The notes: a model not told the origin generated them from the letters alone. Shown: positions 8,821 through 35,767, counted from the first letter of the stretch. The stretch: 64,000 nt of DNA from an uncultured Flavobacteriaceae bacterium (GCA_964595625.1 CAZQQU010000003.1:40327-104326); one strand, 5' to 3'. Program-made: numbers and translations.

Positions 8821-8834
8821 GTACGTTTGTCGGT

Positions 8835-15247: not shown

Positions 15248-15676
15248 ATGAAGTCTGTACATTACATAGCCATCACTTATATAATTTTAAGCATTTCATA
15301 TTTAGTGCTTTCCTTTGTAATTTATACGGATACAGACACTTATCAGGTAAAATCTCAGGAGATTGATGTTTCGACCGCTTCTCAAGGGCGTTTGGTTTGG
15401 CAAAAATACAACTGCCAGGCTTGTCATCAGTTGTACGGTTTGGGAGGTTTTTTAGGCCCTGATCTGACGAATGTTTCCCAAAAAGGATTTTTTTACGTAG
15501 ATGCTTTTTTAAAAACCGGCGTAAACTCTATGCCCGAATTTTCACTCTCTGAAGAAGAAACCCACCAATTGTTCGAATTTCTCAAATCGGTTGACAACAC
15601 CGGAAACGCCATCCCGGCTACTTACAACACTTTTTGGAACGGAATGATACAACCCGAGCATGAAACCCAACCGTAA
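15248..15676 (+). CDS. Membrane-anchored mono-haem cytochrome c (small subunit of the HCO-like complex)
   Basis: N-terminal TM helix, CQACH haem site and a downstream SMPEF methionine. It starts 3 nt after the nadB stop and overlaps the next gene by 17 nt. Confidence 0.75.
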   Translation: MKSVHYIAITYIILSISYLVLSFVIYTDTDTYQVKSQEIDVSTASQGRLVWQKYNCQACHQLYGLGGFLGPDLTNVSQKGFFYVDAFLKTGVNSMPEFSLSEEETHQLFEFLKSVDNTGNAIPATYNTFWNGMIQPEHETQP

Positions 15677-16991: not shown

Positions 16992-18206
16992 ATGCTAAAA
17001 ACAGCTGCTTTAACAGCATTGGGATATTTAGCCATAGCGTCCCTACTGGGATTGGCGCTTCGTTATACTGCCCTAGCAGAGCTACCGATAACGTATCGGT
17101 ATTTTGTACATGGCCACTCGCATATTGCTATGCTGGGATGGATTTATATTGCTCTGACGACTCTTATTTACAAGGCCTATCTTCACACTGAGTCCGTACC
17201 TTTTTCTTATAAAATACTTTTTGTTTGTACCCAAATTACCCTATTAGGTATGTTGATTGCCTTTCCGCTGCAGGGATATGCTTTATTTTCCATACTCTTT
17301 TCGAGTCTGTTTTTAATCGCCAGCTACGGATTTATATACTTTTTTTTCAAAAATGTTTACCCGGAAAATAAAAACACTTTCTCTTATCATTTGATCAAAC
17401 AGGCCTTGGGGTTTTTGGGCTTGTCAAGTATAGGCGCTTGGTCTTTGGGCATTATCATGACTACCGCCGGAAATACTTCGATTTATTACAAATTGGCGAT
17501 TTATTTCTTTTTACATTTTCAATACAACGGATGGATGCTTCTCGCTGTTTTGGGCTTGTTTTTTTATGTTTTGGAGAAAAAAAATATTGTTTTTTCTAAA
17601 GAAAAAACCCTCTCTTTAAGACGTTGGATAGCCGGCAGTGTGTATCTGACTTATTTGTTGTCGGCTTTGTTTGCCCAGCCCCATGAAAGTATTTATGCTT
17701 TAGCCGGCATAGGCGTTCTTTTACAACTCATGGCTTTTGCCAAAGTTTGGAAAATGGTTCGGTCAAAACACAACGCTATTCAACAAGTTTTTCCTCAAAA
17801 AATATTTTGGATACTCGCTTTATCGGGACTATTGTGGGTGGTAAAACTACTGTTGCAAACACTTTCTGTCTTCCCGTATTTTGCCGATTTGGCTTATCAA
17901 TTCCCCGATTTTATCATCGGATATCTGCACTGGGTTTTTCTTGGAATTATCAGTTTGGCTCTCTTCGGGTTAACAACATCTTTTGATTTATTGACTCTAT
18001 CACAAAAACTTATGTCTTTGTTTTTAATAGGTTTTGCGGCTACAGAATTATTGATATTCTACCGTGCCATGGCTCAATGGCTGGATATGCCTTTGCCATC
18101 ACAATTTCTATTCGCCTTATTTTTAGCAAGTTTGGTATTATTTATCGGAATTGCGGGCTTGCTTTTGAAGAATATTTCGATTTTATTTTTTGATAAAACA
18201 AAATAA
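16992..18206 (+). CDS. Polytopic (about 12 TM) membrane protein of unknown function, co-operonic with the HCO-like gene
   Basis: 404 aa and hydrophobic throughout. It has three His-containing helix motifs (HGHSHIAMLGW, HFQYNGW, YLHWVFLG). Any NnrS-like resemblance is only impressionistic. Confidence 0.5.
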   Translation: MLKTAALTALGYLAIASLLGLALRYTALAELPITYRYFVHGHSHIAMLGWIYIALTTLIYKAYLHTESVPFSYKILFVCTQITLLGMLIAFPLQGYALFSILFSSLFLIASYGFIYFFFKNVYPENKNTFSYHLIKQALGFLGLSSIGAWSLGIIMTTAGNTSIYYKLAIYFFLHFQYNGWMLLAVLGLFFYVLEKKNIVFSKEKTLSLRRWIAGSVYLTYLLSALFAQPHESIYALAGIGVLLQLMAFAKVWKMVRSKHNAIQQVFPQKIFWILALSGLLWVVKLLLQTLSVFPYFADLAYQFPDFIIGYLHWVFLGIISLALFGLTTSFDLLTLSQKLMSLFLIGFAATELLIFYRAMAQWLDMPLPSQFLFALFLASLVLFIGIAGLLLKNISILFFDKTK

Positions 18207-18218: not shown

Positions 18219-18602
18219 TTACAAGCGACTTTCATAAATGCTGAGGTATAGGTGTGTAGCCATTTTTCGGGCATTGTTTTTGGCGCGTTCGGCCAATTCA
18301 CCTTCAAACAACTCATCTATGGTTTGAATCCACAAATTCAGCCATTCGCCAAAATGCTCCTGCTGAATGATATTAGAAAAATGCGAATCGACCTGTATGT
18401 GCGCCAAACGCGGATTTCCTTTGTACTTGGCTTTAAAAAACAAATTGCTCTCCCAAAAATCTGTCAGTTTTTCTAAATGTTCGTCCCAATTGTGAATGAT
18501 TTCGTTAAAAAACCGACCAATAAATTCGCTCGTTCTTACTTTTCCGTAAAAAGTAGAAACCAGTAAATACACATCGTCCCGCGATTCAATTTGTTTTTTC
18601 AT
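18219..18602 (-). CDS. Truncated haemoglobin, group III-like (Ctb-like)
   Basis: 127 aa. The pattern FYGKVR...FF...W.EH..KL.DFW...Y.GNP...H...F..WL.LW matches my memory of C. jejuni Ctb-type globins. Confidence 0.7.
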   Translation of the reverse strand: MKKQIESRDDVYLLVSTFYGKVRTSEFIGRFFNEIIHNWDEHLEKLTDFWESNLFFKAKYKGNPRLAHIQVDSHFSNIIQQEHFGEWLNLWIQTIDELFEGELAERAKNNARKMATHLYLSIYESRL

Positions 18603-18883
18603 ACTATTAAATGAAAAATAATGATTCCTAAACTCACAAAAATACTAAGCAATAACGAGTTAAACACAAATCCGGGTTTCATTTGTGCCAACACCGAAGC
18701 GTTGTACCACATAGCTACCGAAACCACCATCACCAATTGAATAAGTTCGGAAATTCCCGTGCCGCTTTGTAAAACAAACATAGCGGCAATAGAACCAATA
18801 CAGCTCGAGGCAATAATACCCAAGGTAATGTTCAGATAAAACATTTGCTGAAAATCGGAGCGTAATTTTTTATACAATCTCAT
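18599..18883 (-). CDS. Small three-TM membrane protein, overlapping the globin start (ATGA)
   Basis: 94 aa and hydrophobic, with a 4-nt overlap with the downstream globin gene. Confidence 0.5.
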   Translation of the reverse strand: MRLYKKLRSDFQQMFYLNITLGIIASSCIGSIAAMFVLQSGTGISELIQLVMVVSVAMWYNASVLAQMKPGFVFNSLLLSIFVSLGIIIFHLIV

Positions 18884-19064
18884 CTGTTTTATATTTTAAT
18901 TATTATCAAAGATTTCTAGCCAAAACACATTTTCAGGTGTTTGGACAATATGTTAATCCGGCATTTCATGAAATGATTTTTTCAGTAATAAAATTATTTC
19001 TCCTCAAAAAATTTATTTATGACCTGAATCATAATCCTCTGCAGGGTTATTTGGGATTTAAGAT

Positions 19065-19076
19065 TGACATTTGTCA
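19065..19076 (+). promoter_or_regulatory. FNR/FixK-type box TGACATTTGTCA upstream of ccoI
   Basis: 14-mer TTGACATTTGTCAT. The dyad centre is 36.5 bp from the terminal G of the -7-like element CACTTTTG (19100-19107). Confidence 0.55.
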
Positions 19077-19134: not shown

Positions 19135-21522
19135 ATGGCAAAGGAGGTATCTTGTTATCACTGCGGAAACAGTTGTAACGAAGGCGAGATCGTTACTGAC
19201 GGAAAGAATTTTTGTTGCAACGGTTGTAAAACCGTTTACGAAATTTTTGCCGCCAGCGACCTTACTTGTTATTACGATTTGCAACAATCTCCGGGGGCTA
19301 TTCCCAAGGAAATAAAAGGGAAATACGATTTTTTAGACAACCCGGATATCGCCTCCAAAATCCTTGAGTTTGACGATGATAAACTGCAAATTGTTTTACT
19401 CTACATACCTCATATTCACTGTAGTTCGTGTATTTGGATTTTAGAAAATCTAAACAAACTCAACCCGGAAATTACCTCCTCGCAAGTAAATTTTCCAAAA
19501 AAAATCGTTCGTATACAGTTTAAAAAACAGGGAGTTTCTCTCAAAGAAGTAGTGCTTTTACTGTGTAGCATCGGCTATGAACCCTATATCAGTTTGGAGA
19601 ATTACGAAGGAAAACCCAGGGTCACCGACCGCAGTTTGCTATACAAACTAGCCACTGCGGGATTTGCCTTTGGAAATATCATGTTTTTATCCTTTCCCGA
19701 ATATTTTGACTTCAACGATCTTTGGCTTGAACAATACAAACATTTGTTCCGTTGGATGATGTTTGCTTTTTCGGTGCCGGTGTTGTTATACTCTGCCTCG
19801 GGTTATTTTGTTTCGGCTTATTTAGGGTTGAAAAGGGGCTTTTTAAACATCGATGTGCCTTTGGCTTTGGGAATACTGGTTTTGTTTGTTCGCAGTGTGG
19901 TAGAAATTTCTTTCGACTGGGGTTCGGGGTTTTTTGACAGTTTTTCGGGGTTGGTATTTTTTATTTTGTTAGGAAAATATTTCCAACAACGCACCTATAA
20001 TTTTCTTTCATTTGAAAGGGATTACAAATCGTATTTCCCCATCGCTGTAACTCGCATTCGCGACGGTATAGAAGAATCGGCGCCGGTGTACAACATTCAA
20101 AAGGGCGATAGATTACTGATTAGAAACGAAGAACTCATCCCGGTGGACGGTATTTTGATTAAAGGAAACGGGAGGGTGGATTACAGTTTTGTCACCGGAG
20201 AATCCGTTCCTGTACGAAAAGAATCAGGTGATAAAATATTTGCCGGAGGCAAACAAATAGCAGGCCTCATAGAGATGGAAAGCTTGAAAGCGGTATCACA
20301 AAGCTACCTTACCCAACTATGGAGCAACGATGTTTTTAACAAAGACAAAGAACACGCATTTGTGGGGTTGACCAACCGAGTGAGCAAATATTTTACCATC
20401 GTCATTCTTATCATAGCTTTTGCTTCGTTGGGAATTTGGACGTATTTAGGTAATTTCCCGGTAGCCATTCAGGCATTTACAGCGGTTTTAATCATTGCCT
20501 GCCCCTGTGCCTTGGCCATGTCAGTGCCGTTTACCATGGGAAATATGCTTCGTATTTTCGGGCGACTCAAATTTTATCTAAAAAACGCTAATGTCATTGA
20601 GAAACTGGCAGCGATTGACACTATCATTTTTGACAAAACCGGAACGATTACCACCGGCACCAAAAGCAATATCAGTTATGATGGTGTGCCGCTCACTCAC
20701 GAAGAAGCTGCGTTGCTCAAATCTACGTTGCGAACCTCAAACCACCCGCTCAGTCGTTCGCTTTACGCTATTTTAAAAGAAAACGACATTCTTACCTTAG
20801 ACGAATACCAAGAGCATGTGGGGCAGGGTTTACAAGCTCAAGCCAACGGAAACAGCATTAAAATAGGTTCGTCTGATTTTGTAAATAAAAAGTCGGCTCC
20901 CTCTGAAAAAGTATACCACGAAACCTCCGTGCATATCAGCACCAACGATACTTACAAAGGAAAATTTGTTTTCAAAAATCAATACCGCGAAAATGTAAAA
21001 GAAACTTTTGAAATTTTGGGTAAAAACTATCATTTGGCCATACTATCGGGAGACAACGAAGGTGAAAAAATATACCTTCGCGAAATTTTACCCCCACAAA
21101 CTGAACTGGCTTTCAACCAAAAACCAGACGACAAATTAAAGCATATTGAACATCTGCAGAATTTCGGTCATCGAGTAATGATGGTAGGAGACGGGCTAAA
21201 CGACGCCGGAGCTTTACAACAAAGCGATGTGGGAATAGCTATTTCGGAGAATGTCAATGTTTTCTCTCCCGCCTGCGACGGAATTTTGGATGCGTCCAAG
21301 TTTAAAGAGCTTCCTCATTACATCCGAGCGTCCAATACTGCCATTAAAATTGTCAAAGCGAGTATTACCATCTCATTTTTATACAATATAGTGGGCCTGT
21401 ACTTTGCGGTTACCGGACAATTAGCCCCGGTAGTAGCTGCCATTATCATGCCCATGAGTTCGATTAGCGTAGTAGCATTTACGACTGTAATGACTAACTT
21501 AACAGGAAGAAAATTGAGATAA
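19135..21522 (+). CDS. ccoI: Copper-translocating P1B-type ATPase for cbb3 assembly (CcoI/FixI)
   Basis: N-terminal CYHCGNSC...CCNGC motif, transmembrane CPC, DKTGTIT phosphorylation site and the GDGLNDAGAL hinge. Confidence 0.9.
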   Translation: MAKEVSCYHCGNSCNEGEIVTDGKNFCCNGCKTVYEIFAASDLTCYYDLQQSPGAIPKEIKGKYDFLDNPDIASKILEFDDDKLQIVLLYIPHIHCSSCIWILENLNKLNPEITSSQVNFPKKIVRIQFKKQGVSLKEVVLLLCSIGYEPYISLENYEGKPRVTDRSLLYKLATAGFAFGNIMFLSFPEYFDFNDLWLEQYKHLFRWMMFAFSVPVLLYSASGYFVSAYLGLKRGFLNIDVPLALGILVLFVRSVVEISFDWGSGFFDSFSGLVFFILLGKYFQQRTYNFLSFERDYKSYFPIAVTRIRDGIEESAPVYNIQKGDRLLIRNEELIPVDGILIKGNGRVDYSFVTGESVPVRKESGDKIFAGGKQIAGLIEMESLKAVSQSYLTQLWSNDVFNKDKEHAFVGLTNRVSKYFTIVILIIAFASLGIWTYLGNFPVAIQAFTAVLIIACPCALAMSVPFTMGNMLRIFGRLKFYLKNANVIEKLAAIDTIIFDKTGTITTGTKSNISYDGVPLTHEEAALLKSTLRTSNHPLSRSLYAILKENDILTLDEYQEHVGQGLQAQANGNSIKIGSSDFVNKKSAPSEKVYHETSVHISTNDTYKGKFVFKNQYRENVKETFEILGKNYHLAILSGDNEGEKIYLREILPPQTELAFNQKPDDKLKHIEHLQNFGHRVMMVGDGLNDAGALQQSDVGIAISENVNVFSPACDGILDASKFKELPHYIRASNTAIKIVKASITISFLYNIVGLYFAVTGQLAPVVAAIIMPMSSISVVAFTTVMTNLTGRKLR

Positions 21523-21563: not shown

Positions 21564-21575
21564 TGACTAATGTCA
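21564..21575 (+). promoter_or_regulatory. FNR/FixK-type box TGACTAATGTCA upstream of ccoS-ccoNO
   Basis: 14-mer ATGACTAATGTCAT with perfect arms. The dyad centre is 36.5 bp from the terminal G of TATTTTTG (21599-21606). Confidence 0.55.
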
Positions 21576-21623
21576 TTTTTTGACGTAGCGTCGAAAAGTA
21601 TTTTTGATAGCAAATTCAGTCGC

Positions 21624-21833
21624 ATGAGCGTAATATACTTAACCTTAGCAATAAGTACCTTGGTAGCTATTGTCTTTTTCTTCATTTTTATTTTAAGTGT
21701 GAAAAAAGGACAGTATGACGACACCTATACCCCATCGGTAAGGATGCTTTTTGAAGACGAACTCGTAAAGGACAAAAATAAAATCGATATACAAGAAACC
21801 TCAACTAAAAAGTCCACTAATAAAGAAAACTAA
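21624..21833 (+). CDS. ccoS: cbb3 oxidase maturation protein CcoS
   Basis: A single TM segment followed by KKGQYDD, the CcoS signature. The internal ATG at 21624 is preferred over the ORF-track start. Confidence 0.75.
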   Translation: MSVIYLTLAISTLVAIVFFFIFILSVKKGQYDDTYTPSVRMLFEDELVKDKNKIDIQETSTKKSTNKEN

Positions 21834-21835: not shown

Positions 21836-24040
21836 ATGGAAGTACAGCAGTTTTATTATGATAACAAAATCGTAAAGAAGTTTATTTACGCAACGATACT
21901 CTGGGGCGTCGTGGGAATGGCCGTGGGATTGTTGCTTGCTTTTATGTTTTTATTCCCCAATCTTACCGAAGGTATCTCTTGGCTTAGCTTTGGACGGCTA
22001 AGACCCTTACATACCAATGCGGTGATTTTTGCTTTTGTGGGGAACGCTATTTTTGCAGGGGTCTATTACTCATTACAAAGGCTCTTAAAAACCCGGATGT
22101 ATAGTAACTTTTTGAGTAATTTCAACTTCTGGGGATGGCAACTTATCATTGTTTCGGCAGCACTCACACTACCTTTGGGGTTTACCACTTCAAAAGAATA
22201 TGCTGAACTCGAATGGCCTATCGATATTGCTATTGCATTAGTTTGGGTGGCTTTTGGGGTGAATATGATTGGTACCATCTTACGAAGAAGACAACGGCAT
22301 TTGTACGTGGCTATCTGGTTTTATTTAGCCACTTTTGTGACTGTAGCTGTACTCCATATTTTCAACAGCTTAGCGCTTCCGGTAGATTTCTTAAAAAGTT
22401 ATTCGGTATATGCCGGAGTACAAGACGCATTGGTGCAATGGTGGTACGGACATAATGCCGTGGCATTTTTCTTGACCACACCCTTTTTGGGTTTGATGTA
22501 CTACTATGTGCCCAAAATTGCTGATCGCCCCATATACTCCTACCGCTTGTCCATTGTACACTTTTGGTCATTAATCTTTATCTACATTTGGGCAGGTCCT
22601 CACCACTTGTTATACACTGCTTTACCCACCTGGGCACAAAGCTTGGGGGTAACCTTCTCGATCATGTTGATAGCTCCTTCTTGGGGTGGTATGATCAACG
22701 GACTTTTAACCTTAAGAGGTGCTTGGGACAAAGTACGTACCGATCCCACTCTCAAATTTATGGTGGTAGCTATCACCGGTTACGGTATGGCCACTTTTGA
22801 AGGCCCGATGTTATCGCTTAAAAATGTCAATGCAATTGCCCACTTTACCGACTGGATTATTGCACACGTACACGTAGGTGCCTTGGCTTGGAACGGATTT
22901 TTAACCTTCGGTATGGTCTATTGGTTGGTGCCCAAACTTTTTAAAACCAAATTATACTCCACTGCCTTAGCCAATACCCACTTCTGGTTAGGAACCCTCG
23001 GAATTGTTTTATACGCTCTGCCGATGTACGTAGCCGGCGTGGTTCAGGCTTCTATGTGGAAACAATTCAACCCCGACGGAACTTTGGTTTACGGTAACTT
23101 TATGGAAACCGTTACCGAAATTATCCCGATGTACTGGATGCGTGCCATAGGCGGTAGCTTATACATCTTGGGTATGTTTATATTACTCTACAACATTATC
23201 AAAACCATCAAAAGCGGTAGTGCTGTCACCGACGAGTTGGCTGAAGCCGCTCCTCTCGAAAAAGTTTCTAAAAGACGTGTTTCCGGTGAGGGGTATCACT
23301 CTTGGTTAGAAAGAAGACCGGTACAACTTACCATTTTTGCAACCATTGCCATCTTAATCGGTGGAATTGTGCAAATTGTTCCGACCTTAGTCGTCAAATC
23401 AAACATTCCTACTATCACGAGTGTGCATCCTTATACACCCTTGGAGCTCGAAGGAAGAGACCTCTACATCCGGGAAGGCTGTGTGGGCTGTCACTCACAA
23501 ATGGTTCGGCCTTTTAGGAGTGAAACCGAGCGGTATAATGGCGAGTATGCCAAAGCCGGAGAGTTTGTTTACGACCACCCGTTTTTGTGGGGTAGTAAAC
23601 GTACCGGACCCGACTTACTTCGGGTGGGTGGGAAATACTCCGACAGTTGGCATTTTAACCACTTTTACGACCCGCAGAGTACCTCGACCAACTCTATTAT
23701 GCCAAGCTATAAATGGCTAATTACCAACAAATTAAACAAGTCCAAAACCGAAAATAAAATGCAGATAATGCGTAAGTTGGGCGTGCCTTATTCGGAAGAA
23801 GACATCAACCGAGCACAAGAATGGATGCTTGAACAAGGGTCGCAAATAGAGCAAAACCTTATGGGAGACCCCGAATTTACTCGGGTATATGAAGCCGAAA
23901 AACAGTACAACCTTGAGAATGGTTTGGAATTTATAGAAATGAAGAACCGTGAAGTGGTTGCGTTAATCGCTTACTTACAACGTCTTGGAACCGATATCAA
24001 AATAAAAAATCAAGAGGAAACAACCTCACAAAACCAATAA
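21836..24040 (+). CDS. ccoN: cbb3-type cytochrome c oxidase, fused subunits I and II (CcoN-CcoO)
   Basis: The CcoN part carries LRPLHT, WWYGHNAV, GPHH and AHVHVG. The C-terminal CcoO part carries the CVGCH haem site. This fusion is usual in Bacteroidota. Confidence 0.9.
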   Translation: MEVQQFYYDNKIVKKFIYATILWGVVGMAVGLLLAFMFLFPNLTEGISWLSFGRLRPLHTNAVIFAFVGNAIFAGVYYSLQRLLKTRMYSNFLSNFNFWGWQLIIVSAALTLPLGFTTSKEYAELEWPIDIAIALVWVAFGVNMIGTILRRRQRHLYVAIWFYLATFVTVAVLHIFNSLALPVDFLKSYSVYAGVQDALVQWWYGHNAVAFFLTTPFLGLMYYYVPKIADRPIYSYRLSIVHFWSLIFIYIWAGPHHLLYTALPTWAQSLGVTFSIMLIAPSWGGMINGLLTLRGAWDKVRTDPTLKFMVVAITGYGMATFEGPMLSLKNVNAIAHFTDWIIAHVHVGALAWNGFLTFGMVYWLVPKLFKTKLYSTALANTHFWLGTLGIVLYALPMYVAGVVQASMWKQFNPDGTLVYGNFMETVTEIIPMYWMRAIGGSLYILGMFILLYNIIKTIKSGSAVTDELAEAAPLEKVSKRRVSGEGYHSWLERRPVQLTIFATIAILIGGIVQIVPTLVVKSNIPTITSVHPYTPLELEGRDLYIREGCVGCHSQMVRPFRSETERYNGEYAKAGEFVYDHPFLWGSKRTGPDLLRVGGKYSDSWHFNHFYDPQSTSTNSIMPSYKWLITNKLNKSKTENKMQIMRKLGVPYSEEDINRAQEWMLEQGSQIEQNLMGDPEFTRVYEAEKQYNLENGLEFIEMKNREVVALIAYLQRLGTDIKIKNQEETTSQNQ

Positions 24041-24043
24041 GTT

Positions 24044-24235
24044 ATGTTGAAATTTGTAAAAGGACATATGGAAAGTATTGATGGTGTAGAGGTTTACCCC
24101 ATCATCTCTCTGCTGATTTTCTTTATCTTCTTTGCCCTACTTTTTATTTGGGTATTGACAGCTAAGAAAAGTTATATTGAAAAGGTTAGTAACATTCCTC
24201 TAGAAAACGAGGAAGAAAATACCGGCGCATTATGA
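24044..24235 (+). CDS. Small single-TM cbb3 subunit (CcoQ-like)
   Basis: 63 aa with one TM segment, lying between ccoNO and ccoP and overlapping ccoP by 4 nt. Confidence 0.55.
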   Translation: MLKFVKGHMESIDGVEVYPIISLLIFFIFFALLFIWVLTAKKSYIEKVSNIPLENEEENTGAL

Positions 24236-25191
24236 AAACATTTTGGTCCATTTTTAGAATTGCAGTTATTGCTGTCATCTCCCTGTACTTAATCGAAAAA
24301 TTATCCGGTGTAGCTGAAGGCGAGTGGGCTATTATTCAACACCCGGTATTGATTCTCGTGTGGTTGGGAATTGCCCTGTTCATGACAGCCATTGAAGTGA
24401 GCATAGCTTCTTTGAGAAGATTATTGTTTCACACTTTAAGTGACGAAGCAAAAGTCAAATATTTGGCTGCCGAAGAAATAAGAAATGAGAAATTTACCGG
24501 AAGATTTAAAAAATTGTATCACCGATTGGTGGATTCTAAACCTGTCGAAAAAGAGGGCGAAATTCTTCTAGACCACGATTACGACGGTATCAGGGAATTG
24601 GACAACAACTTACCTCCGTGGTGGTTATACGGTTTTTATATTTCGATACTTTTTGCCATAATTTATATGGTGCGTTTTCACGTATTTGACGGAAAACAAC
24701 AAGATGAAGAATACCAAATGGAAATGGCAAAAGCCGCTCTCGAGATAGAAGAATACAAAAAGAATGCGAAGGATTTAGTCGACGCCAGCACTGTTGTGGT
24801 TCTCACAGATCCGGCGGATTTAAATACCGGAAAATCAGTTTTTGAAACTACTTGTGCGACTTGTCACAGAGCTGACGGAGGTGGTGGTATCGGCCCCAAT
24901 CTTACTGATGATTACTGGATTATGGGCGGGGATATCCGTGATATTTTTACGGTAATTTCAGAAGGTGGTCGCCCGGGTAAAGGGATGATTGCATGGAAAA
25001 ACGACCTCAGCCCGTTGCAAATTGCACAAACCGCCAGTTATATTACCACGCTATATGGAACCAACCCTGCTGACGCCAAAGATCCGGAAGGAGAATTATA
25101 TGTCAAAGATGGGGATTCGGGTGAACAAGCCACTGATACCGAAACCATAGATAGCGCAGAGTCGGAAAGTGTTTCGGAAGTAGAACAATAA
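24232..25191 (+). CDS. ccoP: cbb3-type oxidase cytochrome c subunit CcoP (single CxxCH seen)
   Basis: The N-terminal TM region includes the DHDYDGIRELDNNLPPWW motif. There is one CATCH site and an acidic C-terminal tail. Confidence 0.8.
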   Translation: MKTFWSIFRIAVIAVISLYLIEKLSGVAEGEWAIIQHPVLILVWLGIALFMTAIEVSIASLRRLLFHTLSDEAKVKYLAAEEIRNEKFTGRFKKLYHRLVDSKPVEKEGEILLDHDYDGIRELDNNLPPWWLYGFYISILFAIIYMVRFHVFDGKQQDEEYQMEMAKAALEIEEYKKNAKDLVDASTVVVLTDPADLNTGKSVFETTCATCHRADGGGGIGPNLTDDYWIMGGDIRDIFTVISEGGRPGKGMIAWKNDLSPLQIAQTASYITTLYGTNPADAKDPEGELYVKDGDSGEQATDTETIDSAESESVSEVEQ

Positions 25192-25209
25192 AATTCAATC
25201 AACAAGGCG

Positions 25210-25253
25210 CTAAGACATCAGGATTTGACAAGAGAAAAATTCGGATGTCTTAG
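25210..25253 (+). terminator. Long-loop hairpin between ccoP and ccoG
   Basis: 10-bp stem CTAAGACATC / GATGTCTTAG followed by TGATTTTT. The 24-nt loop makes its function uncertain. Confidence 0.35.
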
Positions 25254-25269
25254 TGATTTTTAAAAAGTT

Positions 25270-26685
25270 ATGGAAAATCAGGAACAGTTTCGGGATTCTA
25301 TCGGAACCATTGATGAGACGGGTAAAAGAAAGTGGATTTTTCCCAAAAAACCTTCGGGGAAATTTTACACCTACCGAAAATATGTGAGTTATTTTTTACT
25401 CTTATTCCTGTTTGCGGCACCTTTTGTAAAAATTAACGGAAACCAGTTTTTGCTTTTTAATGTCATCGAACGTAAATTCAATATTTTCGGATTTCCGTTT
25501 TGGCCGCAGGACTTTTATCTCTTTGTGATTTCCATGGTAATCGGGGTGGTCTTTATCGCCTTGTTTACGGTAGCTTTTGGAAGGATATTTTGTGGATGGA
25601 TTTGTCCGCAAACTATTTTTATGGAAATGGTTTTTCGCCGAATCGAATATGCCATCGAGGGCGACAGAGGAAAACAGATTCGGCTAGACAAAATGCCCTG
25701 GAATACCGAAAAAATTACTAAAAAAGGTCTGAAATGGTTCTTGTTTGCCATTATTTCTTTTTTAATCGCCAATGTATTTTTGGCTTATCTGATTGGTAGC
25801 GATCGGCTTGTGCTCTACATCACCGAAGGCCCCATCAACCACTTAAATACTTTCATCGGGTTGTTGATTTTTACCGCGGTATTCTATTTTGTTTTTGCCT
25901 GGTTTAGAGAACAAGTATGTATCATTGCCTGTCCGTATGGGCGTCTGCAAGGAGTTTTGTTGGATACTAAATCCATAGTGGTAGCTTACGACCACAAACG
26001 AGGCGAAGCTGAAAAAGGGCGAAAAAAATTTCGTAAAAATGAAGACCGAAAAGAATTGGGTTATGGCGATTGTATCGATTGTTTTCAATGTGTCCACGTT
26101 TGTCCTACGGGTATTGATATCCGAAATGGAACCCAACTGGAATGTGTAAACTGTACAGCCTGTATAGACGCTTGTGACAGTATCATGGAATCGGTTAATT
26201 ATCCCAAAGGACTTATCCGGTACGCCAGTGAGGAAAATATTCAAAAGAAAAAAAGATTTGAGTTTACCCTCCGAATGAAAGGCTATACCGCCGTTTTGAT
26301 TATCCTGATAGGAGTACTTATTGGAATGTTATTCTTAAGGAGCGATGTCGAAGCTTTGGTTTTACGACTACCCGGACAATTATACGAATTAAAAGAAAAC
26401 AGCCGAGTAAGTAATGTTTATACCTATAAACTGATTAATAAAACCACGCTGGAGTATCACAATATCGAGTTTAAGTTGTTATCACATAAAGGGGATATTA
26501 ACTTTGTAACTCAAGCCGAAGTGGTGGTTCCGCCTCAGGGATTGGTAGAAGGGACTCTTTTTATTGAGGTTCCTCAAGCCGCTCTCGACGGACATAAAAC
26601 TAAAATGGAAATAGGGGTTTATAGTGACGGAAAATTAATCGAAACAACTCGAACCAACTTTTTAGGACCGAGGAGTTTCAGATAA
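25270..26685 (+). CDS. ccoG: Cytochrome c oxidase accessory protein CcoG (4Fe-4S, membrane)
   Basis: Motifs CGWICPQ, CPYGRLQ, and two ferredoxin-type motifs CIDCFQCVHVCP and CVNCTACIDAC. Confidence 0.85.
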   Translation: MENQEQFRDSIGTIDETGKRKWIFPKKPSGKFYTYRKYVSYFLLLFLFAAPFVKINGNQFLLFNVIERKFNIFGFPFWPQDFYLFVISMVIGVVFIALFTVAFGRIFCGWICPQTIFMEMVFRRIEYAIEGDRGKQIRLDKMPWNTEKITKKGLKWFLFAIISFLIANVFLAYLIGSDRLVLYITEGPINHLNTFIGLLIFTAVFYFVFAWFREQVCIIACPYGRLQGVLLDTKSIVVAYDHKRGEAEKGRKKFRKNEDRKELGYGDCIDCFQCVHVCPTGIDIRNGTQLECVNCTACIDACDSIMESVNYPKGLIRYASEENIQKKKRFEFTLRMKGYTAVLIILIGVLIGMLFLRSDVEALVLRLPGQLYELKENSRVSNVYTYKLINKTTLEYHNIEFKLLSHKGDINFVTQAEVVVPPQGLVEGTLFIEVPQAALDGHKTKMEIGVYSDGKLIETTRTNFLGPRSFR

Positions 26686-26782
26686 GCCCCTCCCTAATCC
26701 TCTCCAAAGGGGAGGGAAAGGGTTGATAAAAATAGATTGTTTAATTATAAAAATCCCCCTTTGGGGGAGAAAGGGGTTTGAA
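26686..26782 (+). repeat. GC-rich hairpin/direct-repeat island between ccoG and fixH (REP-like)
   Basis: CCCTCCC (26688-26694) pairs with GGGAGGG (26710-26716). CCCCCTTTGGGGG lies at 26755-26767. The G-rich unit GGGGAG(G)GAAAGGG(G)TT occurs twice, about 54 nt apart. Confidence 0.4.
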
Positions 26783-27226
26783 ATGAAATTAAACTGGGGA
26801 ACAGGAATCTTAGTGGCAATCATCGGGTTTATTGCCTTTATTATGTATTTTATTATCACTATGACAACCGATAAAAAATACGATTTTGAAATGGTGGTAG
26901 ATGATTATTACAAAAAAGAAATTGGTTTTCAGGAAGAGTTGGATGCACAACAAAACGCTTTAAATCTTTCCGAAAAAATACAAATACAAACCTCAACCGA
27001 AGGTGTTATCTTGATTTTCCCTGAGACGATGACAGAAGTACAAAACGGAACAGTAAATTTTTACCGGGTTTCACAAAAATCACTTGATTTTCAAGAAGAA
27101 ATTCGACTCCAAGACAACCAAATGCACATTCCGGCTTCCCGCCTTCTTCCCGGAAGATGGAACATAACTTTGCAGTGGGAATCGGGGGGTAAAAAATATA
27201 TGGTAAAAGAAAATATCACTTTTTAA
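26783..27226 (+). CDS. FixH family protein
   Basis: An N-terminal TM segment (MKLNWGTGILVAIIGF) plus a periplasmic domain, in the position expected within the cco cluster. The internal ATG at 26783 is preferred. Confidence 0.7.
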   Translation: MKLNWGTGILVAIIGFIAFIMYFIITMTTDKKYDFEMVVDDYYKKEIGFQEELDAQQNALNLSEKIQIQTSTEGVILIFPETMTEVQNGTVNFYRVSQKSLDFQEEIRLQDNQMHIPASRLLPGRWNITLQWESGGKKYMVKENITF

Positions 27227-27228
27227 CC

Positions 27229-27936
27229 GTGTTGTTAGGAGCGTTCATACTCGGTCTTTTGGGCAGTCTGCATTGTATAGGTATGTGCGGGCCTATCGCT
27301 CTTATGTTACCAGTAGACCGAAGCAAACCTCTAAAACGCTTTATTCAAACTTTGAGCTACCACGTCGGGCGGATTACTGCCTATGCCCTCATCGGGTTGG
27401 TTTTGGGTGTCGTGGGAAAAAGCTTTTCCATTTTCGGGTTACAGCAATATCTTTCGATTGCCATGGGTATACTTTTGATTGTGGTTATTATTTTGCCGAA
27501 ACAAAAATTACAACGATTTAAAATCGCTTCTTTCCTACATAAATTCATTGCAAAAATCAAACAACAACTGGGAGCTTCACTTAAGAAAAAAACAGCAGAC
27601 ACCTTTTTAACCTTAGGGGTTTTAAACGGTTTTTTGCCCTGTGGATTAGTGTATATTGCTGTTTTTTCGGCCATTGCCATGGGCTCTTTGTGGGAAAGCA
27701 GTATGTATATGGTTTTTTTCGGATTAGGCACCGTCCCTTTAATGACGGTGGCTGTTTATGCCGCTGGTTTTCTGAAAGAAATAACCCGTAGAAAAATTCA
27801 AAAGTTAATTCCTACCTTCGTAGTTATTCTGGGGGCTTTGTTTATTTTACGAGGTCTTGGGTTAGGAATCCCCTATGTTTCCCCAAAACCCGCAACGGAA
27901 ATGGTATCATCAAAAATGGAGTGCCATTCGCCGTGA
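27229..27936 (+). CDS. DsbD_2 / TauE-SafE-like membrane protein ending the cco cluster
   Basis: GTG start and N-terminal GSLHCIGMCGPI motif, with about 6 TM segments. Confidence 0.6.
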   Translation: MLLGAFILGLLGSLHCIGMCGPIALMLPVDRSKPLKRFIQTLSYHVGRITAYALIGLVLGVVGKSFSIFGLQQYLSIAMGILLIVVIILPKQKLQRFKIASFLHKFIAKIKQQLGASLKKKTADTFLTLGVLNGFLPCGLVYIAVFSAIAMGSLWESSMYMVFFGLGTVPLMTVAVYAAGFLKEITRRKIQKLIPTFVVILGALFILRGLGLGIPYVSPKPATEMVSSKMECHSP

Positions 27937-29284: not shown

Positions 29285-29915
29285 CTTTGCTAAAAAAGTA
29301 TATTTACAAACTCTAAAATTGATATCCGAAGAAATTTTATATCGGTTTGGTGCAGAAAAACTGTTTTTCAACAAAGGTGAAACCATCTTTAAAGAAGGAC
29401 AACAGGCGGTTTGTTATTATCAGATTATTTTCGGGGAAGTTAAGATGAATAATTTTAACGAAGACGGGAAAGAGTTTATTCAGGGGATGTTTTTACCAGG
29501 ACAAAGTTTTGGCGAACCACCGCTTTTTGCTGATTTTAAATATCCGGCTGGTGCCGAGGCCCTAACGGATGTTGAAATTTTCCGGCTAGCAAAAGACAAG
29601 TTTTTACTGCTCTTAGAAGCTCATCCCGAGGAACATTTGGCCATTACCAAATCCTTAGCCCGAAGGTTATACTACAAAGCCATCATGGCCACAGAAATTT
29701 CTTCCCAAGAACCCGAACACCGTATTTTGCGGATTTTGGATTATCTGAAAAAATATGTCCACCATTTGAACGAACCTTTTTCTTTTCAAGTAAATATTAC
29801 CCGACAACAAATTGCCGATCTTACGGGATTAAGAGTTGAAACTGTCATCAGAGCGACCAAATCGCTAGAACGTAAAGGAGAATTGAAAATAAAAAACCGG
29901 AAGTTATATCGGTGA
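29223..29915 (+). CDS. Crp/FNR family transcriptional regulator (start uncertain: 29223, 29229 or TTG 29319)
   Basis: cNMP-binding roll (GETIFKEGQ..., FGEPPLF) and a C-terminal HTH with an FNR/FixK-like recognition helix RVETVIRATKSLERKG. The ATG starts overlap the upstream gene by 56-62 nt. Confidence 0.75.
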   Translation: MRMLPIRKLWKKLHLNDLNFNFAKKVYLQTLKLISEEILYRFGAEKLFFNKGETIFKEGQQAVCYYQIIFGEVKMNNFNEDGKEFIQGMFLPGQSFGEPPLFADFKYPAGAEALTDVEIFRLAKDKFLLLLEAHPEEHLAITKSLARRLYYKAIMATEISSQEPEHRILRILDYLKKYVHHLNEPFSFQVNITRQQIADLTGLRVETVIRATKSLERKGELKIKNRKLYR

Positions 29916-32522: not shown

Positions 32523-32534
32523 TGATTTTTATCA
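32523..32534 (-). promoter_or_regulatory. FNR/FixK-type box TGATTTTTATCA in the yceI / kinase divergent region
   Basis: 14-mer ATGATTTTTATCAT with perfect arms. The dyad centre is 36.5 bp from the terminal G of the minus-strand -7-like element CATCTTTG (plus-strand coordinates 32492-32499). Confidence 0.5.
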
Positions 32535-32601: not shown

Positions 32602-33840
32602 ATGAATTCTTTTAAAGAAGAAAACAGGCTACTACACCTTTTATCAGAAGCTATATCTGAAGGAGTGGTAATTGTTGATGATAAACAAACCATCGTTTCT
32701 GCCAATCAACCTCTCGGAGAGATGTTTGGTTACAACCCCGCGGAACTCGAAGGAAAAGATTTAAATATTTTAATTCCCCGAAACATCCACAGTAAACACG
32801 CCGATTATTCCCGAAGTTTTTTTAAGCAAAACGAAAAACGCCAGATGGGACAAGGCCGGGAGTTGTTTGGGGTGCACAAAAACGGAACACCCATTTCGGT
32901 GGAGGTAGGATTGAATCCCTTCAAAATAAAGGATAATATGTACGTGATGGGTATCGTCGTGGATATTACGCTGAGAAAATCTCATGAAGAAAAAATACTG
33001 GAAATCAATCAACAGTTAGAAGAAAAAATCAAACAACGCACCCAAGAACTACACCAAACTGTAGAAGAACTTCAGGAAGAAATTCAACGTCGTTTACAAG
33101 CGGAAAGGAAAATTAAATCGGCGTTGAAACACGAAAAAGAGCTCAACGAACTCAAGACCAAATTTCTCTCTATGGTTTCGCACGAGTTCAAAACCCCACT
33201 CAGCGGTATTCTTACCTCTACTATATTGTTAGGGAAATACCACCTCACTGAGCAACAAGACAAACGAGAGAAACACCTGCGTATTATCACCGAAAAAATT
33301 CATTACCTCAATAATATACTTAATGACTTCTTATCTATCGAGCGACTCGAAACCGGTAAAGTAGTTTATAAATATTCTACCTTCAAACTGAGCAAAGTGG
33401 TTAATGAAGTGGTTTACAACGCAAATATGTTACTCAAATCCGGACAAAAAATTACTTTTCCACCCGAAGTAGACGAATACATTATTACTCAGGATGAAAA
33501 AATATTGGAATTATGTCTCTCAAATTTGGTTCACAATGCCATAAAATACTCGCCTGAAAATACCACTATTTATATAGGGGTTACTGTTGAAAACAACATG
33601 CTTACCATGAGTGTCACCGACCAAGGTATCGGCATTCCTGCAGACTGTCAAAAAAATATTTTCAGTCGCTATTACCGAGCCGAAAATGCTCTCAATACCC
33701 AAGGTACCGGTATAGGATTGAACATTGTTAAAGGACACTTGAAAAATTTAGGAGGAAATATTACTTTTGAAAGTAAAGAAAACCAGGGAAGTACATTTAC
33801 ATTTTCGATACCGGTCAATAATAACTCTCAAACTTTATAA
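32602..33840 (+). CDS. Cytoplasmic PAS sensor histidine kinase, FixL-like haem-PAS
   Basis: No TM segments. The PAS core NILIPRNIHSKHADYSRSFF...GQGRELFGVHKNGTPISVEV...GIVVDIT aligns without gaps to the rhizobial FixL haem pocket recalled from memory. H66 matches the BjFixL proximal His200 and R86 matches Arg220. A coiled coil, H-box SHEFKTPL and HATPase N/G boxes follow. Confidence 0.8.
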   Translation: MNSFKEENRLLHLLSEAISEGVVIVDDKQTIVSANQPLGEMFGYNPAELEGKDLNILIPRNIHSKHADYSRSFFKQNEKRQMGQGRELFGVHKNGTPISVEVGLNPFKIKDNMYVMGIVVDITLRKSHEEKILEINQQLEEKIKQRTQELHQTVEELQEEIQRRLQAERKIKSALKHEKELNELKTKFLSMVSHEFKTPLSGILTSTILLGKYHLTEQQDKREKHLRIITEKIHYLNNILNDFLSIERLETGKVVYKYSTFKLSKVVNEVVYNANMLLKSGQKITFPPEVDEYIITQDEKILELCLSNLVHNAIKYSPENTTIYIGVTVENNMLTMSVTDQGIGIPADCQKNIFSRYYRAENALNTQGTGIGLNIVKGHLKNLGGNITFESKENQGSTFTFSIPVNNNSQTL

Positions 33841-33844
33841 TATT

Positions 33845-34879
33845 TTGACAAAAAAAATATTGCTCATAGAAGACGATACGGTGGTTCGTGAAAATACAGC
33901 CGAACTCTTGGAATTATCCGGCTACGAGGTAATCGCCGTTGCCAATGGGAAAATGGGTGTTACTACTGCCAAAAACAGCTTGCCCAATCTTATCATCTGT
34001 GACATCATGATGCCCGAACTCGACGGTTATGCGGTGCTGGAAGAATTATCACTCGAACCCGCTACCCGAAATATTCCTTTTATTTTTCTATCAGCCAAAT
34101 CAGAACACAGAGACATCCGAAAAGGGATGGATTTGGGAGCCGACGATTATCTGACCAAACCTTTTGATGAACAAGAACTGATAAGCGCTATAGAAAGTCG
34201 CTTGGCAAAATCTTCTATTCAAAAAGAATCTTTGGACGAAACAAATAACGGCTTGCACACTCTTAATGACCTTAAAAATTATTTTGATGACAACGGCATC
34301 GAAATGAATTTTCATAAAGGAGAGCAAATTTTTTCCGAAAACAGCCATCCAAACTACGTGTATCTCGTCTCCAAAGGCAATGTAAAATGCTATAAAAATG
34401 AAGAATCGGGGAAAGAACTCACCACGACACTTTACAAAGAAGACGACCTGTTTGGCTACATCGCTGTGTTACACGACACTCCCAGACAACTCAATGCCAT
34501 TGCACTCAACGATTGTTCTCTGATGGCTTTGCCAAAAGAGACCTTCAGAGAACTGCTGGCAACTAATTATAAATTGGTTTTTGAAATCATCAATCTGCTG
34601 GCAGACAACCTCGAAGAAACCCGCGACCAACTCCTTCAAATGGCTTACGGTTCGGTGAGAAAAAAAACCGCTTCTACCATTTTGCAGTTTGCCGAAAAAC
34701 TCGGAGGCAGACGCCAAGACAGTATCAAAATTTCTCGTAACGATTTGGCCAGCGTGGCCGGTATTGCCACTGAAAGTTTGATTCGTACTTTATCTGCTCT
34801 CCAAAAGGAAGGTTTGATAGACATCGACGGAAGAAACATAAAAATACTTGATTTAGAAAAACTTACAAAAGTTACTTAG
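33845..34879 (+). CDS. Hybrid response regulator: receiver domain fused to a Crp/FNR-type effector plus HTH module
   Basis: The TTG start gives TKKILLIEDD. The receiver has the acceptor Asp in LIICDIMMPELDG and KPF. A cNMP-like roll and the HTH GIATESLIRTLSALQKEG follow. It starts 4 nt after the kinase stop. Confidence 0.8.
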   Translation: MTKKILLIEDDTVVRENTAELLELSGYEVIAVANGKMGVTTAKNSLPNLIICDIMMPELDGYAVLEELSLEPATRNIPFIFLSAKSEHRDIRKGMDLGADDYLTKPFDEQELISAIESRLAKSSIQKESLDETNNGLHTLNDLKNYFDDNGIEMNFHKGEQIFSENSHPNYVYLVSKGNVKCYKNEESGKELTTTLYKEDDLFGYIAVLHDTPRQLNAIALNDCSLMALPKETFRELLATNYKLVFEIINLLADNLEETRDQLLQMAYGSVRKKTASTILQFAEKLGGRRQDSIKISRNDLASVAGIATESLIRTLSALQKEGLIDIDGRNIKILDLEKLTKVT

Positions 34880-34897: not shown

Positions 34898-34909
34898 TGA
34901 CATTTGTCA
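34898..34909 (+). promoter_or_regulatory. FNR/FixK-type box TGACATTTGTCA upstream of the universal stress protein gene
   Basis: 14-mer CTGACATTTGTCAT. The dyad centre is 36.5 bp from the terminal G of TACATTTG (34933-34940). Confidence 0.55.
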
Positions 34910-34960
34910 TTTTTCTAAGCCCTCGCCGGTTATACATTTGCTGCTCATTGTAATAGAAAA

Positions 34961-35767
34961 ATGGTAAACGTACTCATTCCCACGGATTTTTCTGCGAATG
35001 CAGAAAATGCTTTCTTTTACGCACTTTCTTTGCTAAAAAGGAAAAAGTGTACCTTTTATATTACCCATATACTCGGGGGCTCAGCCAAATATTTTCCTTA
35101 TAAAAAACCCGAAGCCGACGACCTTGCCAAAAAACAAATCCAACAGCTAATACTCAAAGCCGAAAAAAACTTTTCGGATGAATCTTATGTGTTCTTTTCG
35201 CAAGTGTTGTACGGAAATACCGTTGATTCTATCCGCAACGAAGTGGAAGACAAAAAGATAAATCTTATTGTCATTGGAGTAAAAGGACGCGCGGCCTCTG
35301 ACAATTCCGTGGGTTCTACCACGGCCGACATTATCCATAAGGTGAAATGTTCGACACTTATCGTTCCCGAAAAAGCCACATTTACTCCCGGAAAAAATAT
35401 CGCTTTCCCTACCGATTATTCTATTTTTTACGGAAGTGAAATTCTGGAAACCATTTCTTTTTACCAAAAACAACTGCATTCCAAAATACACATCCTATAT
35501 CTTTCCAAAAAAGATGAAAAGATGATTGAAGCTCAGAAACAAAACAAAGAATTGTTACAAGAATACTTTTCGGAAAATCTGCATTGCTTTTGTGCCGTTA
35601 CCAGCAAAGAAATAGATTCGGCTGTTAAAAGTTATGTGGCCAACAACGACATTGGTTTGATAGCTTTGGCAGCTCGCGACATACACATTTTTCAGCAACT
35701 CTTGCTGAACCCTACCCACACCGGGAAAATCCAACAGGCTTATGTGCCTTTCTTGGTGCTTCACTAA
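34961..35767 (+). CDS. Universal stress protein (tandem Usp domains)
   Basis: 268 aa with two Usp-like halves (ILIPTDFS..., GSTTADIIHKVKCSTLIVP). Confidence 0.75.
   Translation: MVNVLIPTDFSANAENAFFYALSLLKRKKCTFYITHILGGSAKYFPYKKPEADDLAKKQIQQLILKAEKNFSDESYVFFSQVLYGNTVDSIRNEVEDKKINLIVIGVKGRAASDNSVGSTTADIIHKVKCSTLIVPEKATFTPGKNIAFPTDYSIFYGSEILETISFYQKQLHSKIHILYLSKKDEKMIEAQKQNKELLQEYFSENLHCFCAVTSKEIDSAVKSYVANNDIGLIALAARDIHIFQQLLLNPTHTGKIQQAYVPFLVLH

Follow-up and report, generated by a model that had tools for sequence, protein, structure and literature searches.

In a 64,000-nucleotide (nt) stretch of DNA from an uncultured Flavobacteriaceae bacterium (GCA_964595625.1, CAZQQU010000003.1:40327-104326; hereafter the window), positions 32602-34879 carry two adjacent genes, one encoding a sensor histidine kinase with a FixL/DosP-type haem-PAS domain and the other a response regulator in which a receiver is fused to a Crp/FNR module. 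We estimate at about 0.6 the probability that the two proteins form an oxygen-responsive two-component system working in the following manner. The kinase would hold a b-type haem in its N-terminal PAS domain, with His66 on the F-alpha helix as the ligand. If the kinase works like FixL, autophosphorylation of His194 would start once the haem loses its O2, and the phosphoryl group would then move from His194 to Asp53 of the regulator's receiver. Phosphorylation may license or release the Crp module, probably through a productive dimer, and this dimer would occupy TGAY-N4-RTCAT boxes centred some 42 nt upstream of the transcription start and 23 nt before the -7 element TAnnTTTG. From this class-II position the regulator would activate usp, ccoI and ccoS-ccoNO-ccoP in the window, and in relatives also further usp genes, hpf, hsp20 and thioredoxin genes. 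The domain identities, the haem-PAS homology, the operon structure, the synteny and the conservation and geometry of the boxes are supported by the data set out below.

The kinase gene (32602-33840, + strand; open reading frame (ORF) call and Pfam) encodes 412 residues arranged as PAS, coiled coil, HisKA and HATPase_c. Pfam was run on both proteins, as the original prediction of this system had suggested, and in the kinase it places PAS_9 at residues 20-123, HisKA at 185-252 and HATPase_c at 298-406. The HisKA match contains the H-box SHEFKTPL with His194 (codon 33181-33183, + strand), the predicted autophosphorylation site. No hydrophobic segment was found in the kinase, the maximum 19-residue Kyte-Doolittle mean being 0.82; the protein is therefore taken to be soluble and cytoplasmic, and a membrane-bound sensor is ruled out on the same ground. 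The kinase stop codon (33838-33840) is followed, after a gap of 4 nt that the original prediction had already noted, by the TTG start codon of the regulator at 33845. An 81-nt spacer then separates the regulator from a gene for a universal stress protein (Usp) of 268 residues (usp, 34961-35767, + strand), a predicted direct target by Pfam match, synteny and its box. Kinase and regulator are the sole histidine kinase and the sole receiver domain of the 64-kb window.

The N-terminal PAS domain of the kinase (residues 11-126; 32632-32979, + strand) is, by sequence and fold, a member of the FixL/DosP haem-PAS subfamily, and haem binding is predicted for it. This placement is made because profile search, gapless alignment and Foldseek agree. 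In a single-sequence search of the PDB with kinase residues 1-143, DosP (9e-12), FG214 (3.6e-09), RmFixL (8.7e-09) and BjFixL (2.4e-08) are among the best matches, and the LOV domain of YtvA scores about as well as BjFixL. A profile built from 25 partner-kinase PAS domains was also searched against the PDB. Haem-PAS domains make up all of its 14 best distinct sequences, with DosP, RmFixL and BjFixL as the first 13 and FG214 as the fourteenth (E-values of 2.7e-22 for DosP, 4.9e-22 for RmFixL, 1.4e-19 for BjFixL and 7.8e-15 for FG214). The first PAS domain that is not of the haem type is again YtvA LOV (3e-11), with 46.5 bits vs 58-82 bits for the haem-PAS domains. The margin is thus at least 12 bits overall and 20-36 bits for FixL and full-length DosP. 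A LOV-type flavin PAS domain is ruled out by this deficit of at least 12 bits in the profile search and by the absence of the LOV Cys motif.

BLASTP aligns the kinase PAS domain with the BjFixL haem domain, in a BjFixL sequence checked to be identical to that of PDB 8js5/1dp6, over 117 residues without gaps (E 2e-12, identity 21%). In this register His66 (codon 32797-32799, + strand), the predicted proximal haem ligand, lies on BjFixL His200, and Arg86 (codon 32857-32859, + strand) on Arg220; the corresponding residues are His77 and Arg97 in DosP and His194 and Arg214 in RmFixL. The original prediction had proposed the gapless alignment with rhizobial FixL and the two residue equivalences, together with the G-x-G-R, D/NGT and D-I/L-T landmarks of FixL, and all of these are borne out, the landmarks being present as MGQGR, KNGT and VDIT. 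The fold predicted for the domain, another check that it had put forward, leads to the same family. An AlphaFold2 model of kinase residues 1-140 has a mean predicted local distance difference test score (pLDDT) of 83, and in a Foldseek comparison with the PDB its 17 best matches are all haem-PAS structures, headed by FixL 8js5 (E 9e-11, template-modelling score 0.82). LOV domains come next, one to two orders of magnitude worse.

Conservation was counted over 78 partner kinases that adjoin receiver-Crp genes. His66 is kept in 74 of them, Arg80 in 70, Met82 in 66, Arg86 in 52, Leu104 in 77 and Phe107 in 72, while the hydrophobic distal position 102 holds Ala, Val or Ile. In the gapless alignment Arg80 falls at H+14, on BjFixL His214, which we take to be a haem-propionate contact in the FixL structures. 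The FG-loop Arg of FixL and DosP (BjFixL Arg220, DosP Arg97), to which Arg86 corresponds here, couples ligand binding to signalling. According to a published classification of PAS domains, haem binding in the FixL/DosP cluster depends primarily on the His of the F-alpha helix (PMC10468136).

The window kinase is connected to canonical FixL by a divergent pair from a metagenome (L083), whose kinase (1293-2489) and regulator (2486-3538) genes share a 4-nt overlap. A gapless alignment with BjFixL gives its PAS domain an identity of 40% (E 2e-35), and the domain shows the motifs LMPQPDRSYHDRY (also given as PDRSYHDRY), IIGIGR and HDLT, while its regulator is 43% identical to the window regulator. 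By these sequence comparisons L083 is a bridge between the window kinase family and canonical FixL. It came from a metagenome scan with an alignment of divergent regulators whose patterns were generic receiver motifs; a full-length receiver-Crp protein was present in only 2 of the 80 loci of that scan, one of them L083. A box also lies upstream of the L083 kinase gene, at 1143.

The regulator gene (33845-34879, + strand) encodes 344 residues from its TTG start. Pfam and homologues identify a receiver at residues 5-117 (33857-34195, + strand; Response_reg, 3.8e-28) with Asp53 encoded at 34001-34003, a beta-barrel of the cNMP-binding type without cyclic AMP (cAMP) contacts at residues 154-241 (34304-34567, + strand; cNMP_binding, 1.1e-21), and a Crp-type helix-turn-helix (HTH) at residues 275-342 (34667-34870, + strand; HTH_Crp_2, 1.4e-14). 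The recognition helix, TESLIRTL, spans residues 309-316 (34769-34792). The start at 33845 is preferred because it fits the homologues both in length (344-351 residues) and in the N-terminus M-(K)KxLLIEDD; a longer frame from TTG 33767, which appears in a mechanical ORF list, is excluded by these N-termini. Asp10/Asp11, Asp53 and Lys105 are invariant in an alignment of 27 regulator sequences. The best NCBIfam models for the receiver are OmpR-family response regulators (CseB, PhoB), and no FixJ/NarL-type model is found among its top NCBIfam matches.

A PDB search matches the last 205 residues of the regulator, over their full length, with Crp/FNR proteins of known structure (GlxR 1e-18, Mycobacterium tuberculosis CRP 7e-18, Porphyromonas gingivalis Crp/Fnr 1e-16, FixK2 2e-12, FNR about 2e-12). 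The NCBIfam models for FixK and FNR score 65.3 and 64.4 bits vs cut-offs of 300 and 228, respectively. Judged by these scores the Crp module is complete but generic Crp/FNR, and is not a FixK orthologue. The FGE motif of cAMP-binding proteins is replaced by an invariant FGY, the position of E. coli CRP Arg82 is mostly Tyr and that of Ser83 is Gln; a cAMP-responsive CRP is ruled out, as the regulator family lacks the Glu72 and Arg82 contacts. An FNR-type N-terminal Cys cluster was looked for in the regulator and not found, the N-terminus being occupied by the receiver. By its sequence, then, the protein is Crp/FNR in architecture and belongs to neither the cAMP nor the Fe-S subgroup. In the recognition helix neither Glu310 nor Arg314 varies, even among relatives of only 37% identity, and Ile313, occasionally replaced in the family by Val, Ala or Ser, takes the position of FNR Ser212. 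Because Glu and Arg are kept down to that identity, co-variation between helix and box across divergent receiver-Crp proteins is uninformative. AlphaFold2 models the whole regulator as two well-folded halves joined by a disordered linker at residues 128-139 (pLDDT 83, predicted template-modelling score 0.41), with a predicted secondary structure that fits the Crp/FNR architecture. The earlier description of the regulator as a receiver-Crp/FNR fusion of other than the FixJ/LuxR type agrees with these findings; of the E..(S/I)R pattern that it gave for the recognition helix, Glu and Arg are shared with FNR, whereas the Ser of FNR is Ile.

Both proteins have thousands of relatives, whose annotations read no more than 'response regulator' or 'PAS domain-containing sensor histidine kinase'. 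The regulator matches 2205 representatives at E <= 1e-30 in a library clustered at 50% identity; of the best 150, about 140 are full-length, at roughly 340-360 residues. A scan of one genome per species gave at least 584 matches, of which 80 loci (1.5 Mb) were kept. These loci are annotated as Flavobacteriaceae, except for one metagenome bin labelled Alteromonas (L013), and belong to over 25 genera, among them Mariniflexile, Algibacter, Aquimarina, Maribacter, Arenibacter, Polaribacter, Lutibacter, Aequorivita, Gillisia and Nonlabens. This survey of the gene pair, of a kind suggested at the outset for Flavobacteriia, yields a conserved arrangement: in 78 of the 80 loci the regulator start coincides with the end of an ORF whose N-terminus matches the PAS domain of the kinase family at 138-229 bits, and one of the two loci without an upstream kinase is cut by a contig end. 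A usp gene lies within 600 nt downstream of the regulator in 65 loci. Genes for the cbb3 oxidase are found within 10 kb of the pair in about 16 loci, four of which have ccoI next to the kinase gene in divergent orientation. In many partner kinases, which are 500-650 residues long, one or two further PAS domains stand between the haem-type PAS and the transmitter (L008, L015, L021, L023, L033, L036, L043, L052, L058, L060, L064 and others). The 4-nt gap, the synteny in 78 of 80 loci, the absence of any other kinase or receiver from the window and the invariant phosphorylation residues all suggest that kinase and regulator are a cognate pair.

The motif TGAY-N4-RTCA occurs eight times in the window vs 3.4 expected, and five of the eight boxes lie in spacers of promoter type: at 19020 and 19065 in the ccoI region, at 21564 before ccoS-ccoNO, at 32523 before the kinase gene and at 34898 before usp. 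The usp box, TGACATTTGTCA (34898-34909, + strand; motif scan and conservation), lies in the spacer between regulator and usp and is followed at 23 nt by the -7 promoter element TACATTTG (34933-34940, + strand), assigned from the family-wide spacing. Another TGACATTTGTCA box (19065-19076, + strand; motif scan) precedes by 70 nt the gene for a CcoI/FixI-type P-type ATPase (19135-21522, + strand; family match) and again has an element, CACTTTTG, at the 23-nt spacing. In the same divergent spacer, a TGACCTGAATCA box (19020-19031, - strand; motif scan) faces the ORFs 18599-18883 and 18219-18602. A TGACTAATGTCA box (21564-21575, + strand; motif scan), with the -7 element TATTTTTG (21599-21606) 23 nt downstream, stands before ccoS/fixS (21624-21833, + strand; 69 residues) and the cbb3 oxidase and maturation genes that follow it, namely those for a CcoNO fusion, CcoP, CcoG, FixH and a DsbD_2 protein (21836-27936, + strand). 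The fifth box, TGATTTTTATCA (32523-32534; motif scan), lies 79 nt 5' of the kinase ATG and is a possible autoregulation site. FixK-type boxes in front of the cbb3 genes, as originally predicted, are therefore present at 19065 and 21564.

The same arrangement recurs in relatives. A box is present in all 65 spacers between regulator and usp, with the consensus A-n-(A/C)-TGAT-n-T-T-T-ATCA-T-T-t, which has the TGAT/ATCA core and lacks the outer T/A of the FNR box. The absence of this outer pair is consistent with the replacement of FNR Ser212 by Ile. The T just after the palindrome (+12) is invariant in 66 of 66 sites, and 61 of the 66 have the same distance to TAnnTTTG. Over the 80 loci the combination of box, 23 nt and TAnnTTTG occurs 129 times, where about 0.7 would be expected by chance; every other spacing from 10 to 39 nt between box and TAnnTTTG occurs 0-8 times. 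The location of the -7 element relative to the transcription start is taken from Bacteroides promoters. If it is placed here as in Bacteroides, the box centre falls near -42 and overlaps the -33 region, which is the position of a class-II activator. For ccoNO, 8 of 8 loci have a box 258-272 nt 5' of the gene, before ccoS; for ccoI, 8 of 10 have one 58-71 nt 5' of it; and none precedes the operon-internal genes ccoP (0 of 9 loci) and ccoG (0 of 8). The kinase gene has a box at most 350 nt upstream in 36 of 60 related loci.

To define the candidate targets, genes downstream of promoters with a box and a -7 element were clustered and counted by locus. Usp leads with 75 loci (161 genes). Next comes a 134-residue protein encoded divergently from the kinase (42 loci), followed by HPF (Ribosomal_S30AE; 15 loci), the kinase itself (14 loci), CcoNO (12 loci), Hsp20 (11 loci), a WG-repeat protein (10 loci) and thioredoxin (8 loci). 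The target scope given in the original prediction, cco and usp, holds as far as it goes, since boxes are found there, but the predicted regulon is wider and takes in hpf, hsp20 and thioredoxin genes. On the basis of the promoter motifs, this set reads as a regulon for low oxygen and persistence, that is, a predicted hypoxia regulon. A transcriptome study of Flavobacterium psychrophilum found that O2 limitation strongly induces the cbb3 oxidase and did not name a regulator (PMC9723704). The 134-residue protein, which is the second commonest predicted target after Usp, has no Pfam match (for example L018 6759-7163 and L044 7963-8436, both - strand), and a family of unknown 149-residue proteins is box-preceded in 13 loci.

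The boxes are assigned to the receiver-Crp protein because a conserved operator adjoins its gene in every locus examined and because its recognition helix is invariant; it is on this sequence evidence that we infer the assignment to it rather than to a paralogue. The pair is accordingly our best candidate for the low-oxygen switch of Flavobacteriaceae over cbb3 oxidase and stress genes.

The resemblance to FixL-FixJ-FixK of rhizobia lies in a haem-PAS histidine kinase whose proximal His and FG-loop Arg are in register, and in an output through a Crp/FNR-type factor. In rhizobia that factor acts at a TGA-N6-TCA palindrome before fixNOQP/ccoNOQP and fixGHIS, and the same is predicted here. The two systems differ in that the flavobacterial pair has no FixJ (NarL/LuxR-type) partner and no separate step of fixK transcription, the receiver being fused to the Crp module; the receiver is OmpR-like, the Crp module is not a FixK orthologue, the kinase is soluble with a single PAS domain, and the box lacks the outer T/A of the FixK/FNR sequence TTGAT-N4-ATCAA. 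The original prediction had called the pair a FixL-FixJ-FixK cascade collapsed into two proteins. This picture is apt as a functional analogy; as a statement of descent it fails on the OmpR-like receiver and on the 65 bits, vs a cut-off of 300, obtained with the FixK model. The system would thus be FixL-FixJ-FixK-like in its working, while falling by sequence outside the FixJ-partner and FixK-orthologue classes. In the hFixL-FxkR-FixK system of Rhizobium leguminosarum and R. etli, a FixL-type kinase is reported to signal through a response regulator other than FixJ (PMC7888657). FxkR induces a separate fixK, whereas here the Crp module is part of the response regulator.

Other relatives share one half of the pathway. 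E. coli DosP (EcDOS) is the best sequence match of the kinase PAS domain, with His77/Arg97 equivalent to His66/Arg86, but its output is a cyclic di-GMP phosphodiesterase and its distal Met95 is Gln84 here. FG214 (bioRxiv 10.64898/2026.03.15.711900; PDB 10jx) belongs to the same haem-PAS subfamily, has its proximal His in register, ranks seventh in the Foldseek comparison and provides another shortened route from haem to DNA. Unlike the window pair, it has the PAS domain fused directly to an HTH, without kinase or receiver, and it works through a bis-His six-coordinate haem and a monomer-dimer switch. FNR, ANR and FixK have in common with the regulator the barrel, the dimerisation helix and the HTH, the Glu and Arg of the recognition helix and a class-II palindrome before cbb3 genes. 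In contrast to FNR, the regulator has a receiver in place of the N-terminal Cys cluster and Ile in place of Ser212. In M. tuberculosis, the haem kinases DosS and DosT drive, through DosR, a regulon with Usp, Hsp20/alpha-crystallin and ribosome hibernation functions, and the regulon predicted here likewise contains Usp, Hsp20 and HPF. The components are nonetheless different, in that DosS and DosT use GAF rather than PAS domains and DosR is of the NarL type, so that homology is confined to the kinase core. A search of the full-text literature found neither a characterised receiver-Crp regulator nor a haem-PAS kinase in Bacteroidota, in keeping with the original prediction, although the architecture may be listed in a census of response regulators.

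A number of observations speak against one part or another of the scheme described above. The AlphaFold2 model of the regulator leaves the interface between receiver and Crp module undefined (pLDDT below 50 at linker residues 128-134), and the box at 32523, upstream of the kinase gene, has no canonical -7 element at the 23-nt spacing. Further points concern the protein that binds the boxes. The window encodes a stand-alone Crp/FNR regulator of 198 residues, Crp2 (about 29313-29915, + strand, start codon not fixed), which has a single Cys and no evident sensor; its helix, RVETVIR, carries the same Glu/Ile/Arg recognition residues and makes it a possible co-regulator or second tier. Within the Planktosalinus, Salegentibacter, Gillisia and Zunongwangia clade it is conserved at 65-86% identity. 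One orthologue lies directly after a cco cluster (L081, 8001-8597) and another beside nosZLDFY and RIC (L082, 8001-8597); in the latter locus a canonical box (7939), followed at 23 nt by a -7 element, stands 62 nt 5' of crp2, which would fit autoregulation or a FixJ-to-fixK-like second tier. Given the box before this crp2 orthologue, a second regulatory tier may persist beside the fusion, which qualifies the single-tier reading of the original prediction. In five loci, usp is directly followed by a gene for a Cys-rich FNR-like protein (MGKCEQC..., with an N-terminal CxxC and the helix TATESAIR; L002 12030-12698, L003 12033-12701, L004 7292-7960, L005 12006-12674 and L016 11978-12646). This protein is 35-36% identical to the Crp module of the regulator and is the closest paralogue found, which hints that the receiver-Crp fusion arose from an FNR-like ancestor. 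Crp2 or the FNR-like protein could, to judge from their helices, bind the same boxes. It is possible on these grounds, though unlikely, that the cbb3 boxes are bound mainly by Crp2 or the FNR-like protein, with the receiver-Crp regulator limited to its neighbour usp and similar stress genes, or acting upstream of Crp2 in the way that FixJ acts on fixK. Such an arrangement fits poorly with the distribution of Crp2, for orthologues of at least 65% identity were found only in the clade named above whereas usp and cco boxes occur in all sampled genera, and in none of the 80 loci does the pair have a Crp2 orthologue within 10 kb. The lack of an evident sensor in Crp2 also argues against it, as does the fact that the sole box position present in every locus examined adjoins the receiver-Crp gene (65 of 65 where usp follows). 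FNR, ANR, DNR, FixK and NnrR share a box in proteobacteria. By analogy, several paralogues probably share the flavobacterial box, and the receiver-Crp protein would be the member that receives the oxygen signal. A third Crp-family gene of the window, crp3 (11023-11655, + strand), can be dismissed as encoding the box binder, as the helix of its product, SRVVVSR, lacks the Glu; this 210-residue protein contains a Cys-rich stretch, GDTCAMTLACCMGD, and probably recognises a different DNA motif.

The remaining doubts concern the cofactor. Met82, kept in 66 of the 78 kinases, aligns with Met172 of FG214, and position 84, where His is the commonest residue in the family, aligns with the distal ligand Met95 of DosP. 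Because Met82 and His84 sit at these distal-ligand positions, the haem could be of the six-coordinate kind and sense redox state, NO or CO in place of O2. That the PAS domain binds haem in this way, like DosP, DosS or FG214, and governs a redox or nitrosative regulon instead of serving as a FixL-type O2 sensor appears somewhat less probable still than control of the cbb3 boxes by a paralogue. The nos genes, the RIC/ScdA protein and the Rrf2 regulator of the window would suit such a role, and the FG-loop Arg86, kept in only 52 of the 78 kinases, is not universal. On the other hand, the window kinase itself has Gln84, the L083 kinase has the FixL-type IIGIGR loop with neither Met nor His there, and the predicted regulon centres on the high-affinity cbb3 oxidase, which is induced by low O2 in a flavobacterium (PMC9723704). 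It is very improbable that the PAS domain binds no haem, the conserved His serving another ligand or dimerisation and the kinase answering an unrelated cytoplasmic signal. One may invoke for this the identity to FixL of only 21%, the Foldseek scores of LOV domains, which are worse by a factor of only 10 to 100, the replacement of the proximal His by Tyr or Leu in four of the 78 kinases (L008, L043, L060 and L074), and the PAS model, whose pLDDT drops to its minimum of 60-69 where the F helix ends and in the FG loop, a segment expected to wrap the cofactor. Set against these are the bit-score gap that separates haem-PAS domains from other PAS domains in the profile search (at least 12 bits, and 20-36 for FixL and full-length DosP), the missing LOV Cys motif, the presence of His66 in 95% of the partner kinases, the conserved hydrophobic distal positions (Leu104, and Ala, Val or Ile at 102), Arg80 at the position of BjFixL His214 in 70 of 78, and the link to canonical FixL through L083.

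If the oxygen-responsive scheme is correct, a Crp/FNR factor would be wired by two-component control instead of by a bound ligand or cluster, and the range of FixL outputs (FixJ, FxkR) would be extended to a direct link from kinase to Crp. A bolder version, to which we give slightly less than even odds, is that the regulator is a factor of FNR lineage whose Fe-S N-terminus has been swapped for a phospho-receiver, that it is the first Crp/FNR protein gated by haem-kinase phosphorylation, and that the pair is the master hypoxia and persistence switch of marine Flavobacteriaceae. Such a switch would turn on the cbb3 oxidase together with many Usp proteins, Hsp20 and a ribosome hibernation factor, and in function would correspond to FixLJ-FixK as well as to the DosR regulon of mycobacteria. 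Flavobacteriaceae rank among the main organisms that break down organic matter in the sea and on sinking particles, where oxygen declines steeply; to our knowledge, how they sense oxygen has not been established. The pair provides a testable candidate with a defined DNA box, a fixed promoter geometry and a predicted regulon, and the rule of box, 23 nt and TAnnTTTG could be used to annotate the low-oxygen regulon in thousands of genomes and metagenome-assembled genomes.

Several other features of the window deserve mention. A nosD fragment, a nosF-like ABC ATPase gene, a 260-residue ORF in the nosY position and then a gene for a RIC/ScdA hemerythrin-type iron-sulfur repair protein occupy positions 16-2875. 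The N2O-reductase accessory genes and RIC/ScdA mark the window as a low-oxygen and denitrification neighbourhood. Shortly after them, a TGACAATAATCA box (3338-3349), with a -7 element 25 nt downstream, precedes a 133-residue ORF (3368-3769) without a family match, a homologue of which is box-preceded in L064. Between 4761 and 8760 a TonB-dependent protein of the copper-receptor type lies beside a 616-residue protein related to adenosylcobalamin-dependent ribonucleotide reductase, with a score below the curated cut-off. An Rrf2-family regulator (IscR/NsrR-like) adjoins an OsmC/Ohr-type peroxiredoxin (8793-9269 and 9374-9835, both + strand). A 441-residue protein (15660-16985, + strand) is only a weak match to the COX1 superfamily, at 7.5e-26 in Pfam and with nothing in NCBIfam, and is possibly a haem-copper oxidase resembling nitric-oxide reductase; its gene is followed by a 404-residue ORF (16992-18206, + strand) without a family match. 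Finally, of the two ORFs divergent from ccoI, that at 18219-18602 (- strand) is weakly similar to truncated globins (Bac_globin E 0.004, below the cut-off), and that at 18599-18883 (- strand) encodes a small hydrophobic, probably membrane protein whose homologues are box-preceded in L034 and L072.

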